A stretch of 64,000 nt of DNA, from NCBI RefSeq assembly GCF_050320075.1, contig NZ_CP190018.1. One strand, written 5' to 3'. The notes beneath the pieces were generated by a model that saw nothing but the letters and a program-made list of their open reading frames with translations, did not search any database and was not told the DNA's origin. This DNA is from Escherichia coli (GTDB taxonomy: Bacteria; Pseudomonadota; Gammaproteobacteria; Enterobacterales; Enterobacteriaceae). Position numbers and translations under genes: made by a program. Shown piece after piece: positions 16,182 through 58,311 of the stretch (positions are counted from its first letter, which is position 1; every line of letters starts with the position of its first letter).

Positions 16182-17333
16182 ATGGCAGCTTCAACCTTTT
16201 TTATTCCTTCCGTGAATGTTATTGGTGCTGATTCATTGAATGATGCAATGAATATGATGGCAGATTATGGATTTACCCGTACCTTAATTGTCACTGACAA
16301 TATGTTAACGAAATTGGGTATGGCGGGTGATGTGCAAAAAGCACTGGAAGAACGCAATATTTTTAGTGTTATTTATGATGGCACCCAACCTAACCCCACC
16401 ACGGAAAACGTCGCTGCAGGTTTGAAATTACTTAAAGAAAATAATTGCGATAGCGTGATTTCCTTAGGCGGTGGTTCTCCACACGACTGCGCAAAAGGTA
16501 TTGCGCTGGTGGCAGCCAATGGTGGCGATATTCGCGATTATGAAGGCGTTGACCGCTCTGCAAAACCGCAGCTGCCGATGATCGCCATCAACACCACGGC
16601 GGGTACGGCCTCTGAAATGACCCGTTTCTGCATCATCACTGACGAAGCGCGTCACATCAAAATGGCGATTGTGGATAAACATGTAACTCCGCTGCTTTCT
16701 GTCAATGACTCCTCTCTGATGATTGGTATGCCGAAGTCACTGACCGCCGCAACGGGTATGGATGCCTTAACGCACGCTATCGAAGCGTATGTTTCTATTG
16801 CCGCCACGCCGATCACTGACGCTTGTGCACTGAAAGCCGTGACCATGATTGCCGAAAACCTGCCGTTAGCCGTTGAAGATGGCAGTAATGCGAAAGCGCG
16901 TGAAGCAATGGCTTATGCCCAGTTCCTCGCCGGTATGGCGTTCAATAATGCTTCTCTGGGTTATGTTCATGCGATGGCGCACCAGCTGGGCGGTTTCTAC
17001 AATCTGCCGCACGGTGTATGTAACGCCGTTCTGCTGCCACACGTTCAGGTGTTCAACAGCAAAGTCGCTGCTGCGCGTCTGCGTGACTGTGCTGCTGCCA
17101 TGGGCGTTAACGTGACAGGCAAAAATGACGCGGAAGGCGCAGAAGCGTGCATCAATGCCATCCGTGAACTGGCGAAGAAAGTGGATATCCCGGCAGGCCT
17201 GCGTGACCTGAACGTGAAAGAAGAGGATTTCGCGGTACTGGCCACCAATGCCCTGAAAGATGCGTGTGGGTTTACTAACCCGATTCAGGCAACTCACGAA
17301 GAGATTGTGGCAATTTATCGCGCTGCGATGTAA
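16182..17333 (+). CDS. yiaY: Iron-containing alcohol dehydrogenase family protein YiaY (383 aa)
   Basis: 383-aa ORF recognised as YiaY (Fe-ADH family). Confidence 0.9.
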
Positions 17334-17533
17334 TCATCATTCCCCCAATGGCTGGCTAATTGTCAGCCATTTTTTTAACTATCTCAAAATTTGCGATTTT
17401 TGAGAGAGTTTTAGTTATCTCTGTAATCCTTGCCCGTAAATTCGTGATAGCCGTCGTAAAGCTGTTACCGACTGGCGAAGATTTCGCCAGTCACGTCTAC
17501 CCTTGTTATACCTCACACCGCAAGGAGACGATC

Positions 17534-19072
17534 ATGACCAATAATCCCCCTTCAGCACAGATTAAGCCCGGCGAGTATGGTTTCCCCCTCAAGTTAAAAG
17601 CCCGCTACGACAACTTTATTGGCGGCGAATGGGTAGCCCCTGCCGATGGTGAGTATTACCAGAACCTGACGCCGGTGACCGGGCAGCTGCTGTGCGAAGT
17701 GGCGTCTTCGGGCAAACGAGACATCGATCTGGCGCTGGATGCTGCGCACAAAGTGAAAGATAAATGGGCGCATACTTCGGTGCAGGATCGCGCGGCGATT
17801 CTGTTTAAGATTGCCGATCGGATGGAGCAGAACCTCGAACTGTTAGCGACCGCTGAAACCTGGGATAACGGCAAACCCATTCGCGAAACCAGTGCTGCTG
17901 ATGTGCCGCTGGCGATTGACCATTTTCGCTATTTTGCCTCGTGTATTCGGGCGCAGGAAGGCGGTATTAGTGAAGTGGATAGCGAAACTGTGGCTTATCA
18001 CTTCCACGAACCGTTAGGCGTGGTGGGGCAGATTATTCCGTGGAACTTCCCGCTGCTGATGGCGAGCTGGAAAATGGCTCCCGCGCTGGCGGCGGGCAAC
18101 TGTGTGGTGCTGAAACCCGCACGTCTTACCCCGCTTTCTGTACTGCTGCTAATGGAACTCGTCGGTGATTTACTGCCGCCGGGCGTGGTGAACGTGGTTA
18201 ACGGCGCTGGTGGGGAAATTGGTGAATATCTGGCGACCTCGAAACGCATCGCCAAAGTGGCGTTTACCGGCTCAACGGAAGTGGGCCAACAAATTATGCA
18301 GTACGCCACGCAAAACATTATTCCGGTGACGCTGGAGCTGGGCGGCAAATCCCCAAATATCTTCTTTGCTGATGTGATGGATGAAGAAGATGCCTTTTTC
18401 GATAAAGCGCTGGAAGGCTTTGCACTGTTTGCCTTTAACCAGGGCGAAGTTTGCACCTGTCCAAGCCGTGCTTTAGTGCAGGAGTCTATCTACGAACGCT
18501 TTATGGAACGCGCCATCCGCCGTGTCGAAAGCATTCGCAGCGGTAACCCGCTCGACAGCGTGACGCAAATGGGGGCGCAGGTTTCTCACGGGCAACTGGA
18601 AACCATCCTCAACTACATTGATATCGGTAAAAAAGAGGGCGCAGACGTGCTCACCGGCGGGCGGCGCAAGCTGCTGGAAGGCGAACTGAAAGACGGCTAC
18701 TACCTCGAACCGACGATTCTGTTTGGTCAGAATAATATGCGCGTGTTCCAGGAAGAAATTTTTGGTCCGGTGCTGGCGGTGACCACCTTCAAAACGATGG
18801 AAGAAGCGCTGGAGCTGGCGAACGACACGCAATATGGCCTGGGCGCGGGTGTCTGGAGCCGCAACGGTAATCTGGCCTATAAGATGGGGCGCGGCATTCA
18901 GGCTGGGCGCGTGTGGACCAACTGTTATCACGCTTACCCGGCACATGCGGCGTTTGGCGGCTACAAACAGTCGGGCATCGGACGCGAAACCCATAAGATG
19001 ATGCTTGAGCATTACCAGCAAACCAAGTGCCTGCTGGTGAGCTATTCGGATAAACCGTTGGGGCTGTTCTGA
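17534..19072 (+). CDS. aldB: Aldehyde dehydrogenase B (512 aa)
   Basis: ORF track 17360..19072 trimmed to ATG at 17534 with aggaga RBS ([17 protein letters not shown]...); ALDH family, catalytic Cys region. Confidence 0.92.
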
Positions 19073-53640: not shown

Positions 53641-55710
53641 ATGTCTGAGAAAACTTTTCTGGTGGAAATCGGCACTGAAGAGCTGCCACCAAAAGCACTG
53701 CGCAGCCTGGCTGAGTCCTTTGCTGCGAACTTCACTGCGGAGCTGGATAACGCCGGCCTCGCACACGGCACCGTTCAATGGTTTGCTGCTCCGCGTCGTC
53801 TGGCGCTGAAAGTAGCTAACCTGGCGGAAGCGCAACCGGATCGTGAAATCGAAAAACGCGGCCCGGCGATTGCTCAGGCGTTCGACGCTGAAGGCAAACC
53901 GAGCAAAGCGGCAGAAGGCTGGGCGCGTGGTTGCGGTATTACCGTAGACCAGGCTGAGCGTCTGACTACCGATAAAGGTGAATGGCTGCTGTATCGCGCC
54001 CACGTGAAGGGCGAAAGCACCGAAGCACTGCTGCCGAATATGGTTGCGACTTCGCTGGCGAAACTGCCGATCCCGAAACTGATGCGCTGGGGCGCAAGCG
54101 ACGTGCACTTCGTGCGTCCGGTGCACACCGTGACCCTGCTGCTGGGCGACAAAGTCATTCCGGCTACCATTCTGGGCATTCAGTCCGATCGCGTGATTCG
54201 CGGCCACCGCTTTATGGGCGAGCCGGAATTCACTATCGACGATGCCGATCAGTATCCGGAAATTCTGCGTGAGCGCGGTAAAGTCATCGCCGATTACGAA
54301 GAACGTAAAGCGAAGATTAAAGCCGATGCTGAAGAAGCGGCGCGTAAGATTGGCGGTAACGCTGACTTAAGCGAAAGCCTGTTGGAAGAAGTCGCTTCGC
54401 TGGTGGAATGGCCGGCTGTGCTGACCGCAAAATTCGAAGAGAAATTCCTCGCGGTGCCGTCTGAAGCGCTGGTTTACACCATGAAAGGTGACCAGAAGTA
54501 CTTCCCGGTGTATGCGAACGACGGCAAACTTCTGCCGAACTTTATCTTCGTTGCCAACATCGAATCGAAAGATCCGCAGCAGATTATCTCCGGTAACGAG
54601 AAAGTCGTTCGTCCACGTCTGGCGGATGCTGAGTTCTTCTTCAATACCGACCGTAAAAAACGTCTGGAAGATAACCTGCCGCGCCTGCAAACCGTGCTGT
54701 TCCAGCAACAGCTGGGTACACTGCGTGACAAAACTGACCGCATCCAGGCACTGGCTGGCTGGATTGCTGAACAGATTGGCGCTGACGTTAACCATGCTAC
54801 CCGTGCGGGCCTGCTGTCTAAGTGCGACCTGATGACCAACATGGTCTTCGAGTTCACCGACACCCAGGGCGTTATGGGGATGCACTACGCGCGTCACGAT
54901 GGCGAAGCGGAAGATGTTGCAGTGGCGCTGAACGAGCAGTATCAGCCGCGCTTTGCCGGTGATGACCTGCCGTCTAGCCCGGTAGCCTGTGCGCTGGCGA
55001 TTGCTGACAAGATGGATACTCTGGCGGGTATCTTCGGTATCGGCCAGCATCCGAAAGGCGACAAAGACCCGTTTGCGTTGCGTCGTGCCGCACTTGGCGT
55101 ACTGCGTATTATCGTTGAGAAGAACCTCAACCTTGATCTGCAAACGCTGACCGAAGAAGCAGTGCGTCTGTATGGCGATAAGCTGACTAATGCCAACGTG
55201 GTTGATGATGTTATCGACTTTATGCTCGGTCGCTTCCGCGCCTGGTATCAGGACGAAGGTTACACCGTTGACACAATCCAGGCGGTACTGGCACGTCGTC
55301 CGACGCGTCCGGCAGATTTTGATGCCCGTATGAAGGCAGTATCGCACTTCCGTACTCTGGATGCGGCAGCGTCACTGGCGGCGGCAAACAAGCGTGTATC
55401 TAACATTCTGGCGAAGTCTGACGAAGTGCTGAGCGATCGCGTGAATGCTTCTACTCTGAAAGAGCCGGAAGAAATTAAACTGGCGATGCAGGTGGTTGTG
55501 CTGCGCGATAAACTGGAGCCGTACTTTGCTGAAGGTCGTTACCAGGATGCGCTGGTCGAACTGGCAGAGCTGCGTGAGCCAGTTGATGCTTTCTTCGATA
55601 AAGTGATGGTCATGGTTGATGACAAAGAATTGCGTCTCAACCGTCTGACCATGCTGGAGAAACTGCGCGAACTGTTCCTGCGAGTTGCGGATATTTCGCT
55701 GTTGCAGTAA
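53641..55710 (+). CDS. glyS: Glycine--tRNA ligase beta subunit (689 aa)
   Basis: Recognised as GlyS. Confidence 0.95.
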
Positions 55711-55725
55711 TAACGTCGTTATTAA

Positions 55726-55754
55726 AAAGCCTGCCATCTGGCAGGCTTTTTTTA
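55726..55754 (+). terminator. Rho-independent terminator of glyQS
   Basis: agcctgcc-atct-ggcaggct stem followed by TTTTTTT. Confidence 0.8.
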
Positions 55755-56007
55755 TCGCTAAATAATACAGCAACCTTTAATAATCTTCTGATGAATAAAG
55801 ATTATCTCATATATTAATTTTATGAGATTTTTTTAGGATTATATCAAGGAGAAGAAACGAACTTATTAAGCTAGAATAGCCACGGGTGCTTGAGACTGTT
55901 TGTCTCAGGTATTCACCGAAAGGCAGACAGAGAAAAGCCCCACCTGACTATAAATCAAAGTGTACTGCACCCATTTTGTTGGACGATGAAATGGAATAGC
56001 CCCTAAT

Positions 56008-56529
56008 ATGTCAAAGCCAAAATACCCTTTTGAAAAGCGCCTTGAAGTCGTGAATCACTACTTCACAACTGATGATGGTTACAGGATCATCTCGGCACGT
56101 TTTGGTGTCCCCCGAACCCAGGTCAGGACATGGGTTGCCCTCTATGAAAAACATGGAGAAAAAGGTTTAATTCCCAAACCTAAAGGCGTTAGTGCTGATC
56201 CAGAGTTGCGTATTAAGGTCGTGAAAGCTGTGATCGAGCAGCACATGTCCCTTAATCAGGCTGCTGCTCACTTTATGCTTGCTGGTAGTGGTTCTGTAGC
56301 CAGGTGGCTGAAGGTCTATGAAGAGCGCGGAGAAGCTGGTTTACGCGCGCTCAAGATTGGCACCAAAAGAAACATTGCAATATCAGTTGATCCAGAAAAA
56401 GCGGCATCAGCATTGGAGCTGTCAAAAGACCGACGCATTGAGGATCTTGAAAGGCAAGTTCGATTTCTTGAAACGCGGCTTATGTATCTAAAAAAGCTGA
56501 AAGCCTTAGCTCATCCCACGAAAAAGTAA
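56008..56529 (+). CDS. insJ: IS150 OrfA (InsJ, 173 aa)
   Basis: HTH protein ending ...LAHPTKK; stop overlaps the A-rich slippery run. Confidence 0.92.
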   Translation: MSKPKYPFEKRLEVVNHYFTTDDGYRIISARFGVPRTQVRTWVALYEKHGEKGLIPKPKGVSADPELRIKVVKAVIEQHMSLNQAAAHFMLAGSGSVARWLKVYEERGEAGLRALKIGTKRNIAISVDPEKAASALELSKDRRIEDLERQVRFLETRLMYLKKLKALAHPTKK

Positions 56530-57377
56530 AAGTACTCAACGAGCTAAGGCAGTTTTATCCTCTTGATGAGCTTCTCAGGGCTGCGGAGATACCGCGCAGT
56601 ACGTTTTATTACCATCTAAAGGCTCTCAGCAAGCCTGACAAGTATGCGGACGTTAAAAAGCGTATTGGTGAGATTTATCACGAGAATAGAGGCCGATACG
56701 GATACCGTAGGGTAACGCTGTCTCTTCATCGAGAAGGGAAACAGATTAACCATAAAGCTGTTCAGCGCCTGATGGGAACCCTCTCACTTAAAGCAGCGAT
56801 TAAGGTCAAGCGATACCGCTCTTACAGAGGAGAGGTAGGGCAAACCGCCCCTAATGTTCTCCAAAGAGATTTCAAGGCTACGCGGCCAAACGAGAAGTGG
56901 GTTACCGATGTTACTGAATTTGTAGTCAATGGGCGCAAGCTGTATTTGTCTCCAGTAATAGATCTCTTCAACAACGAAGTTATTTCTTACAGCCTTTCGG
57001 AAAGACCAGTGATGAACATGGTTGAGAATATGCTCGATCAGGCATTCAAAAAGCTTAATCCTCACGAGCATCCTGTTCTGCACTCTGACCAGGGATGGCA
57101 GTATCGTATGAGAAGATATCAAAATATCCTTAAAGAACATGGTATTAAACAAAGCATGTCCAGAAAAGGCAATTGTCTGGATAATGCTGTGGTGGAGTGT
57201 TTCTTTGGAACCTTAAAGTCGGAGTGTTTTTATCTTGATGAGTTCAGTAATATAAGCGAACTGAAGGATGCTGTTACGGAATATATTGAATACTACAACA
57301 GCAGAAGAATTAGCCTGAAATTAAAAGGTCTGACTCCAATTGAATATCGGAATCAGACCTATATGCCTCGTGTTTAA
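56526..57377 (+). CDS. insK: IS150 OrfB (InsK) transposase frame, expressed as OrfAB fusion by -1 frameshift
   Basis: -1 frame relative to insJ beginning at AAAAAG run (56521-56526); DDE integrase core (...HSDQGWQY..., ...[17 protein letters not shown]...). Confidence 0.88.
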
Positions 57378-57763
57378 CTGTCCAACTTTTTGGGGTCAGT
57401 ACAAAGTGAGGCCCCTCTATGCATAGACACCATAAGGTTAGCCTCTTACTCGTTGGAAATCAACACAGGGGGCTGGGAATGCCGCAGAAATATAGATTAC
57501 TTTCTTTAATAGTGATTTGTTGCACGCTTTTATTTTTCACCTGGATGATAAGTGATTCACTGTGTGAATTGCATATTAAACAGGGGAGTTATGAGCTGGC
57601 GGCATTTTTAGCCTGCAATTTGAAAGAGTAAGAGTCTTCGGCGGGAAGTTATTCCCGCCTTTCTTACGGCGTTGCGCATTCTCATTGCACCCAAATTTAT
57701 TTTTCACAAAAATAATAATAGATTTTATTACGCGATCGATTATTTATTTCCTGAAAAACAAAT

Positions 57764-57790
57764 AAAAAAATCCCCGCCAAATGGCAGGGA
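57764..57790 (-). terminator. cspA rho-independent terminator
   Basis: On minus strand tccctgccatttggcgggga followed by a T-run. Confidence 0.7.
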
Positions 57791-57818
57791 TCTTAGATTC
57801 TGTGCTTTTAAGCAGAGA

Positions 57819-58031
57819 TTACAGGCTGGTTACGTTACCAGCTGCCGGGCCTTTAGCGCCGCTTTCGATGGTGAAGGACACTTTCTGACCTTCGTCCAGA
57901 GATTTGTAACCATCGTTCTGGATAGCAGAGAAGTGTACGAACACGTCTTTAGAGCCATCGTCAGGAGTGATGAAGCCGAAGCCTTTGTCAGCGTTGAACC
58001 ATTTTACGATACCAGTCATTTTACCGTACAT
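57819..58031 (-). CDS. cspA: Major cold-shock protein CspA (70 aa); codon 2 is TAC (Tyr) here
   Basis: [70 protein letters not shown]; RNP motifs KGFGFI and VFVHF. Confidence 0.93.
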
Positions 58032-58173
58032 AGTGTATTACCTTTAATAATTAAGTGTGCCTTTCGGCGATATGGCGTGCTTTACAGATTTTGAAGCGTT
58101 AAAGGAATGTGCACTACGAGGGGTATCAACGATAACTCTTGAAGGGACTTGCCTTACTACACTGCTTTAATGG

Positions 58174-58184
58174 TCTGTACGTCA
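58174..58184 (-). promoter_or_regulatory. cspA 5'-UTR cold box
   Basis: Minus-strand tgacgtacaga within the long cspA leader. Confidence 0.65.
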
Positions 58185-58311
58185 AACCGTTGATGTGCAT
58201 TAAGCCACGCATTGGCGGGTGATGCAACAATTATTTTTCATATTTATGATTAATCGGTTGGAAAACGGTCCTGTCATCAGGACCGTAAACAGCAATAAAG
58301 TGGATAAAAGT

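Follow-up and report, generated by a model that had tools for sequence, protein, structure and literature searches.

Intact IS150 within hokA/sokA of Escherichia coli: an insertion distinct from that of K-12 and a candidate target motif

Chromosomal hok loci share with hok/sok of plasmid R1 a toxin of ~50 amino acids, an overlapping mok frame, an antisense Sok region and pairing between the 5' and 3' ends of the mRNA. An association of the insertion sequence (IS) IS150 with these loci has been published before, generally with the interpretation of adaptive inactivation (PMC5419217, bioRxiv 10.1101/527788), and a population survey listed, for E. coli and K. pneumoniae, hok/sok homologues close to hotspots of mobile elements (bioRxiv 10.1101/527788). 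Hotspots at hokB (trg/mokB), hokC and hokD in lines of REL606 have received IS150 with 3-bp duplications in both orientations, and K-12 carries an IS150 (insJ/insK) between hokA and glyS. Here we examined a 64,000-nucleotide stretch of E. coli DNA (assembly GCF_050320075.1, contig NZ_CP190018.1; "the window" is this whole stretch), in which an IS150 downstream of glyS divides a hokA/sokA locus. Like the K-12 copy, it is 1443 bp long, has terminal inverted repeats and a frameshift organisation, and has hokA/sokA as its target; the K-12 copy, in contrast, is inverted, with a junction 2 bp off, no duplication, a deletion in the leader and two amino acid differences in OrfB. Whereas the REL606-line hotspots record laboratory events at other paralogues of E. 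coli B, the window holds a natural hokA allele present in ~17% of genomes, and, in departure from the family anatomy, its hok/sok locus is split by a 1.4-kb IS and is presumably non-functional.

As a sequence feature the insertion is routine, both the IS and its attraction to this locus having been known before, and what may be new is only an explicit IS150 target motif and its bearing on why hok/sok loci are struck so often. We found no description of such a motif in the searchable papers, the older subscription literature on IS150 lying outside the search. Our explanation as a whole, to which we assign a probability of about 0.85, is that an intact IS150 arrived by its normal route, split hokA/sokA independently of the K-12 event and landed in a motif-based hotspot. 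The element would have inserted by the IS3-family route, through a circle intermediate and a 3-bp staggered cut, and the cut lies at the 3' edge of the loop of the conserved Sok stem-loop. The hotspot would arise from a short motif, a 3-bp duplication followed by Y-G-R-G-G-C-Y (here AAG-TGAGGCC), which all chromosomal hok/sok paralogues carry in the arms of the Sok stem.

The IS150 copy and its frameshift region

The original prediction described an intact 1443-bp IS150 with imperfect terminal inverted repeats, an orfA and an open -1-frame orfB with the DDE core, and our analysis bore this out, bounds included. The parts of the element are as follows.

55961 to 57403, plus strand: complete IS150 (IS3 family, IS150 group), 1443 bp
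55961 to 55991, plus strand: left terminal inverted repeat (IRL), 31 nt
57373 to 57403, minus strand: right terminal inverted repeat (IRR), 31 nt
55958 to 55960: left copy of the AAG target-site duplication
57404 to 57406: right copy of the AAG target-site duplication
56008 to 56529, plus strand: orfA, 173 amino acids, helix-turn-helix DNA-binding protein
56496 to 57377, plus strand: orfB part of the OrfAB transposase, -1 frame
56490 to 56496, plus strand: predicted programmed -1 frameshift heptamer A AAA AAG
56503 to 56550, plus strand: predicted frameshift-stimulating stem-loop

Alignment to reference copies gave 100% identity to many RefSeq copies annotated as IS3-like element IS150 (in full, 'IS3-like element IS150 family transposase'), with both ends present and the orfB frame undisrupted. 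The element starts with TGTACTGCACCC and ends with GGGGTCAGTACA, and each of its terminal 22-mers occurs once in the 64-kb window, where the chance expectation is 0. The two 31-nt arms are imperfect, with 71% complementarity, and TGTACTG opens both. All our surveys of elements and alleles covered 5,426 complete E. coli genomes, and IS150 was detected by megablast in 2,864 of them. Compared with the K-12 MG1655 copy, the window IS150 has 4 mismatches, at IS positions 568, 652, 707 and 963.

A simple transposition with a 3-bp AAG duplication had also been proposed, and this too was upheld. Strain 3059 has flanks 100% identical to those of the window, lacks the IS and carries one AAG; because its empty allele has a single AAG, the duplication is genuine and not a chance 3-mer. 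Its size fits the range for IS150, which occasionally makes duplications of 4-5 bp, according to the LTEE (long-term evolution experiment) table in PMC11708052. Length and identity, inverted repeats starting with TG, orfA and orfB in the 0 and -1 frames, a DD(35)E triad and the 3-bp duplication all agree with assignment to IS150. The window copy is presumably transposition-competent and currently mobile. In strain NMBU_W05E18, whose hokA region equals the window (100% over the 2,050 nt compared), IS150 occupies only two places in the genome, and the copy in hokB is identical to the window IS.

OrfA matches HTH_28 (4e-23) and related helix-turn-helix domains, and orfB contributes HTH_21, rve (1.3e-28) and rve_2 domains. 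The -1 frame stays open between 56472 and its stop at 57377, making 56472-56529 the overlap of orfA and orfB. The 456-amino-acid OrfAB fusion has its DD(35)E triad at D301, D361 and E397 and scores 413 bits against the NCBIfam equivalog NF033516 'IS3 family transposase', with the full profile covered.

The slippery site had been placed at AAAAAG, 56521-56526, and here our results differ. That run abuts the orfA stop TAA (56527-56529), reads G AAA AAG in frame, forms no X XXY YYZ heptamer and sits in the loop of the predicted stem-loop. Read in the orfA frame, the overlap holds a sole X XXY YYZ heptamer, A AAA AAG at 56490-56496, ~30 nt upstream. Six nucleotides 3' of it begins a perfect 10-bp stem with a 28-nt loop, whose arms are GCCTTAGCTC (56503-56512) and GAGCTAAGGC (56541-56550); the region has a minimum free energy (MFE) of -18.3 kcal/mol (z = -3.1), and 0 of 200 shuffles folded equally well. 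Vogele et al. are said to have reported A AAA AAG plus a downstream stem-loop for IS150 in 1991. On the heptamer rule, the spacing of the stem and a secondary citation of A AAA AAG for IS150 (PMC2246112), the predicted frameshift site is 56490-56496. The profile score is near-equal for the two positions, the fusion proteins made by a slip at 56496 and at 56526 scoring 413.2 and 412.6 bits, respectively, with the IS3-family hidden Markov model.

Some further features of the element were noted. Position 56528 (IS position 568) is A in the window and G in K-12, giving orfA the stop TAA instead of TGA. The GTG annotated as the start of K-12 insK (OrfB) is GTA in the window, which leaves no start codon there for a free-standing OrfB, and, compared with K-12, IS positions 707 and 963 turn a Ser of OrfB into Gly and an Ala into Val. 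On the minus strand at 57326-57360, within the right end of the IS, a hairpin with 15-bp arms is followed by a T-rich tail and looks terminator-like; on the plus strand the same hairpin stands at the end of orfB without a T-run. In the minus-strand direction it would stop transcripts that run into the IS from the hokA side, such as a truncated SokA.

The divided hokA/sokA locus

The insertion had been described as lying between the glyQS and cspA terminators. This is literally true, but the description missed the target itself: hokA/sokA lies between the glyS stop at 55710 and a match to the Rfam cspA thermoregulator at 57764-58191 on the minus strand (493 bits). On the two sides of the IS we recognised the following parts.

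55884 to 55960, plus strand: 5' portion of the leader of the hokA mRNA, with the predicted mRNA start, 3'-end-pairing element and first stem-loops, Rfam RF01794
55927 to 55960, minus strand: 3' two-thirds of the gene for the antisense RNA SokA (stem-loop/terminator part), 34 nt, cut from its promoter and matching the K-12 sokA pseudogene
57407 to 57429, minus strand: the putative 5' 21-23 nt of SokA (target-recognition end), with boundaries set by homology to SokB and the promoter presumably further right
57419 to 57631, plus strand: mokA frame, 70 amino acids, in frame with hokA, intact in the window and truncated in K-12
57479 to 57631, plus strand: hokA toxin gene, 50 amino acids, intact
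57640 to 57692, plus strand: hokA mRNA 3' region, with a stem-loop at 57640-57659 and GCACCC at 57687-57692, which pairs with the mRNA 5' end

HokA was identified by Pfam HOK_GEF (7.9e-21) and by the NCBIfam HokA equivalog (122 bits, cutoff 89), and differs from K-12 HokA at 4 amino acids. The mokA frame starts 15 bp and hokA 75 bp downstream of the IS end, and both frames are intact. The Rfam model of the sok/hok leader, RF01794, matches on both sides of the element. On the left (55884-56037; 88.2 bits, gathering score 59), model positions 1 to ~82 align before the IS and the alignment decays past its border. The right match (57326-57481) is good only past the IS and ends on the hokA ATG; with 37.9 bits it stays below the gathering score because the IS splits the model. 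The well-aligned parts, 55884-55960 and 57404-57481, thus flank the element. After removal of the IS and one AAG, the reconstructed hokA mRNA is 368 nt long, and in its MFE fold the 5' GGGTGC pairs with GCACCC at 57687-57692. A Hok/Gef open reading frame of ~50 amino acids, a sok-family leader and this predicted pairing of the mRNA ends place the locus in the hok/sok group.

By this anatomy the IS severs the hokA mRNA 77 nt from its predicted start and parts the putative promoter and 5' regulatory element from mokA/hokA. The antisense gene is split as well, about 21-23 nt from the SokA 5' end as placed by homology to SokB. K-12 annotates a 35-nt sokA pseudogene with the same sequence as 55927-55960 on the minus strand, which in turn is homologous to nt 24-57 of the annotated SokB, and the homologous IS150 cut in hokB falls 23 nt from the annotated SokB 5' end. 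From this arrangement and from reports on K-12 we infer that hokA/sokA function was lost, transcription of the toxin together with the antitoxin. A consensus promoter scan found no promoter for hokA or sokA; it also missed the obvious glyS terminator and was not used as evidence.

The orientation of the copy may have a consequence of its own. IS150 is reported to have an outward promoter at its 3' end, and downstream transcription was raised at 12 of 55 LTEE insertions (PMC11101190). In the window this end faces intact mokA/hokA, and the stretch from the orfB stop to hokA has no predicted terminator on the plus strand. A toxin mRNA truncated at its 5' end and outside normal control by hok/sok may therefore arise from this promoter. 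The forward allele is evidently tolerated, because 901 genomes carry a forward copy.

Around the locus, a small open reading frame on the minus strand (57576-57707) is antisense to the 3' end of hokA; K-12 has the 23-amino-acid YsaE there, and in other strains RefSeq lists short hypothetical proteins at this position. Sub-threshold matches to Rfam STnc370 at 55718-55785 and 55670-55756 (41 and 31 bits, gathering score 54) fall on the bidirectional glyS terminator hairpin and probably represent just that terminator. RefSeq names the cold-shock gene beside hokA (57819-58031, minus strand) 'cspE' in several genomes but 'cspA' elsewhere; the window copy lies under the full-length cspA thermoregulator match of 493 bits, and the naming seems inconsistent.

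Comparison with K-12 and the survey of alleles

That K-12 carries an IS150 near glyS, as the original prediction stated, was seen in MG1655. The further proposal that the window holds the same insertion is contradicted by the junctions. In MG1655 the order is cspA, hokA, IS150 (insJ, insK), sokA remnant, glyS, with the IS opposite to glyS, whereas in the window the IS runs in the same direction as glyS. The K-12 junctions read ...CAAAGT T-IRR...IRL-TACTCG..., with the glyS-side junction 2 bp further in than in the window. K-12 has no duplication and misses ~37-39 bp of the hokA/sokA leader (GAGGCC...GCCTCT, including the mokA ATG) that the window retains. Strain CE-O153H30 has the K-12-type deletion too (...CAAAGTG-IRR), and its IS differs from that of the window at 17 sites.

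A common ancestral insertion with later noise would account for the shared element, the shared intergenic region and glyS-side junctions just 2 bp apart. We find it scarcely credible in view of the opposite orientation, the missing duplication and the ~37-39 bp lost in K-12, the 4 differences between the IS copies, and the existence of strain 3059 with an empty site and flanks identical to those of the window. To our knowledge there is no mechanism that would invert an IS in place while keeping a perfect AAG duplication. Judged by orientation, junctions, duplication and deletion, all of which differ, the window insertion is independent of that in K-12. An explanation for the K-12-type allele is offered by the 'IS150-del' events of Ngan et al. 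2024 (PMC11708052), in which insertion comes first, adjacent DNA is deleted later from one end, and no duplication is found; two were described at the hokC hotspot, 16,974-17,045 (72 bp) and 16,975-18,001 (1,027 bp). The K-12 allele fits such a two-step history, whereas the window copy represents the simple undeleted state with its duplication intact.

We then tabulated the states of the glyS-cspA interval among the surveyed genomes.

Empty hokA/sokA site: about 2,817 of 5,426 genomes
Forward IS150, as in the window: about 901 of 5,426 genomes (~17%)
Inverted IS150, all: 1,640 of 5,426 genomes
Inverted IS150 with 39 bp kept and the AAG duplication (sequence type ST131 and relatives): at least 95 genomes, a lower bound

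The remaining inverted alleles are of the K-12 type. The two inverted types were told apart by a 105-nt diagnostic query; an earlier 218-nt junction query could not separate them, the deletion still leaving >80% coverage. Representative alleles were these.

Window: forward copy with AAG duplication; IS variant A568/C652/G707/T963; flanks match empty strain 3059
CRE10 and GN02461: forward copy with AAG duplication; IS variant similar to that of K-12; flanks match empty strain DC71
ST131: inverted, AAG duplication
AW1.7: forward, 5-bp AAGTG duplication
K-12 and CE-O153H30: inverted, with deletion

Since recombination cannot alter orientation or duplication length, these alleles point to at least three or four independent IS150 events, probably five, within 2 bp at hokA/sokA. 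An alternative is that the window allele and that of CRE10 and GN02461 are one insertion spread by homologous recombination. The two have the same orientation and the same AAG duplication, and E. coli recombines; yet on the right the flanks differ within 10-20 bp of the IS end, a matching empty allele exists for each background and 4 sites distinguish the IS copies. We therefore regard spread by recombination as unlikely, and even if it were true, the inverted ST131, 5-bp-duplication and K-12-type alleles would leave at least three events. The locus also collects other elements: in ST131 strain 2019_APHA (locus L002, 284-2502) an IS1 is nested in the inverted hokA IS150, forming a composite of 2,219 bp, and ECSC054 and PSS-13 have an additional IS3 in or beside the hokA IS150.

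The insertion had been called useful mainly as a strain marker, and for this purpose it is weak. Its forward allele is spread over ~901 of the 5,426 genomes, with two IS variants and no fewer than two different backgrounds of flanking sequence, and IS150 at hokA is a homoplastic character because the same trinucleotide was also struck in the other orientation. In typing, IS150 at glyS-cspA is unreliable for marking lineages if its orientation, duplication and variant go unscored. For annotation, the frameshift site, the split hokA/sokA and the intact mokA/hokA need correct labels, and the allele is not to be equated with that of K-12.

A candidate target motif and possible causes of recurrence

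Natural IS150 sites were read oriented from IRL to IRR. In the window and at sites elsewhere a similar 7-mer follows the duplication.

57407 to 57413, plus strand: TGAGGCC, an instance of the IS150 target motif Y-G-R-G-G-C-Y, directly after the duplication; it doubles as the 3' arm of the conserved stem of Sok
pcoA: ggcctcaCCC-IS-CCC TGAGGCT, a perfect palindrome around the duplication
yeeJ: AAG-IS-AAG TGAGGCT
APEC O1: GAA-IS-GAA TGAGGCT
iroN: GTT-IS-GTT TGGGGCT
PSS-13, second hokB site: GCC-IS-GCC TGAGACT

Among the natural alleles examined that have an intact duplication, the motif stands beside IRR in all but that of ST131, where it is beside IRL. As test sites we took LTEE coordinates from Table S1 of PMC11708052, picked solely for clustering, and read the REL606 sequence at each. 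The strict 7-mer TGAGGCT was too narrow for these sites, and a positional test for GGC or N-R-R-GGC was used instead. On one strand, GGC filled positions +4 to +6 past the duplication at 11 of 18 LTEE sites against a simulated background of 4.0% (binomial p = 1.2e-11), and at 7 of the 14 non-hok sites (p = 4.7e-7); N-[GA]-[AG]-GGC was present at 8 of 18 sites against a background of 0.6% (p = 7e-14). Across 19 sites read in orientation, the consensus was Y G R G G C Y. Targets that resemble the IS ends are known for some IS3 members; by eye we found no convincing similarity of TGAGGCC to TGTACTG(A/C)CCC, the ends of IS150.

The paralogues of hokA show where the motif lies within hok/sok. Some 900 of the 5,426 genomes are without an intact hokB/sokB interval, many of them split at one position. 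In NMBU_W05E18 and B-JRPT-4119 hokB is split by IS150 at ...TATCAAC-IS-AAC CGAGGCC, which an alignment of hokA, hokB and hokC places in the same column as ...ATCAAAG-IS-AAG TGAGGCC of hokA. In REL606-derived lines the IS150 site at hokC 16,972, which reads ATCA-ACC-CGAGGCC in the hokC sense, falls in the same Sok-stem column as the natural hokB alleles, and IS150 at hokC 16,989/16,990 lies in the other arm of the Sok stem, as does hokB 1,462,266. From the study of REL4536 only 16,972 and 16,989 were used, farther coordinates (with hokB/ldr swapped) not being mappable to REL606. The conserved stem arms (GCCCCR ... YGAGGC) bear the motif on both strands, which explains why a hok locus has two hotspots. 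Including ten IS150 insertions at trg/mokB (hokB) in mutation-accumulation lines, in both orientations, IS150 insertions are recorded at four hok paralogues, A, B, C and D.

Three observations concern single sites. The LTEE IS150 at REL606 1,462,266 lies in the 5' arm of the SokB stem. Those at 1,619,834 and 1,619,926 are just upstream of hokD, each directly after GCCTCA. PSS-13 has a second natural IS150 site in hokB/sokB, at the extreme 5' end of the hokB mRNA (GGGTGCC-IS-GCC TGAGACT), with a half-site of the TGAG type.

Selection could in principle produce such recurrence if loss of hok/sok made cells fitter and this were the only position that safely kills toxin and antitoxin together. Authors of evolution experiments and population surveys do see adaptive loss of redundant toxin-antitoxin systems (PMC5419217; bioRxiv 10.1101/527788), and structural variants of mokB are recurrent in LTEE populations. 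We consider selection in place of target preference distinctly unlikely: it does not predict single-nucleotide precision in both orientations, nor the same motif at the non-hok sites in pcoA, yeeJ, iroN and others and at half (7/14) of the non-hok LTEE sites, and mutation-accumulation lines, with their weak selection, show the hotspot too. Selection may still aid the persistence of hok/sok alleles.

The target could alternatively be a structure, a hairpin or cruciform of the Sok stem-loop, and not its sequence. IS1397 and ISKpn1, also of the IS3 family, provide a precedent: both are specific for palindromic units (REP), and their transposases determine a strong specificity for targets that are short, GC-rich and palindromic (PMC1525189). 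In hokB and hokC, IS150 has inserted at each of the two junctions between loop and stem of the imperfect Sok palindrome; this, several LTEE sites in terminator-like palindromes (3268052, 3270443) and the perfect palindrome at pcoA would suit such recognition. However, the sites in yeeJ, APEC O1 and iroN have a one-sided motif with no obvious palindrome, so that a half-site appears sufficient, and targeting by structure in place of sequence strikes us as rather improbable. The two are confounded in that G-R-G-G-C is typical of GC-rich stems. IS1397 and ISKpn1 differ from IS150 in their target sequences and in a specificity that is near-absolute, whereas IS150 shows a preference (~60% of sampled sites) for a half-site of 5-7 bp. 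We favour sequence-directed targeting as the main cause, with selection or DNA structure as possible contributors; on the sequence evidence the motif would be recognised by the IS150 transposase.

Several points weigh against our explanation or parts of it. About 40% of the sampled LTEE sites are without the motif, which is a preference and not a requirement. Selection acted on the LTEE clones, and what is seen among natural sites are survivors. At 16,972, REL4536 and REL606 were taken to share coordinates. A single event, moved by recombination and with its IS converted, could in principle underlie both the window and the CRE10 alleles. The hokA and sokA promoters are placed by homology only, and the inactivation of hokA/sokA is deduced from anatomy and from reports on K-12.

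If IS150 cuts 5' of Y-G-R-G-G-C-Y, usually with the motif on the IRR side, and does so at both Sok arms, much of what is called hok/sok 'inactivation' could mainly reflect mutational bias of the transposase, and forward alleles may yield an escaping toxin mRNA; we hold the chances of this to be evenly balanced. Should the motif be true, the link between IS150 and hok/sok would become a testable question of mutational bias versus selection, and a defined motif would help to predict IS150 hotspots in evolution experiments.

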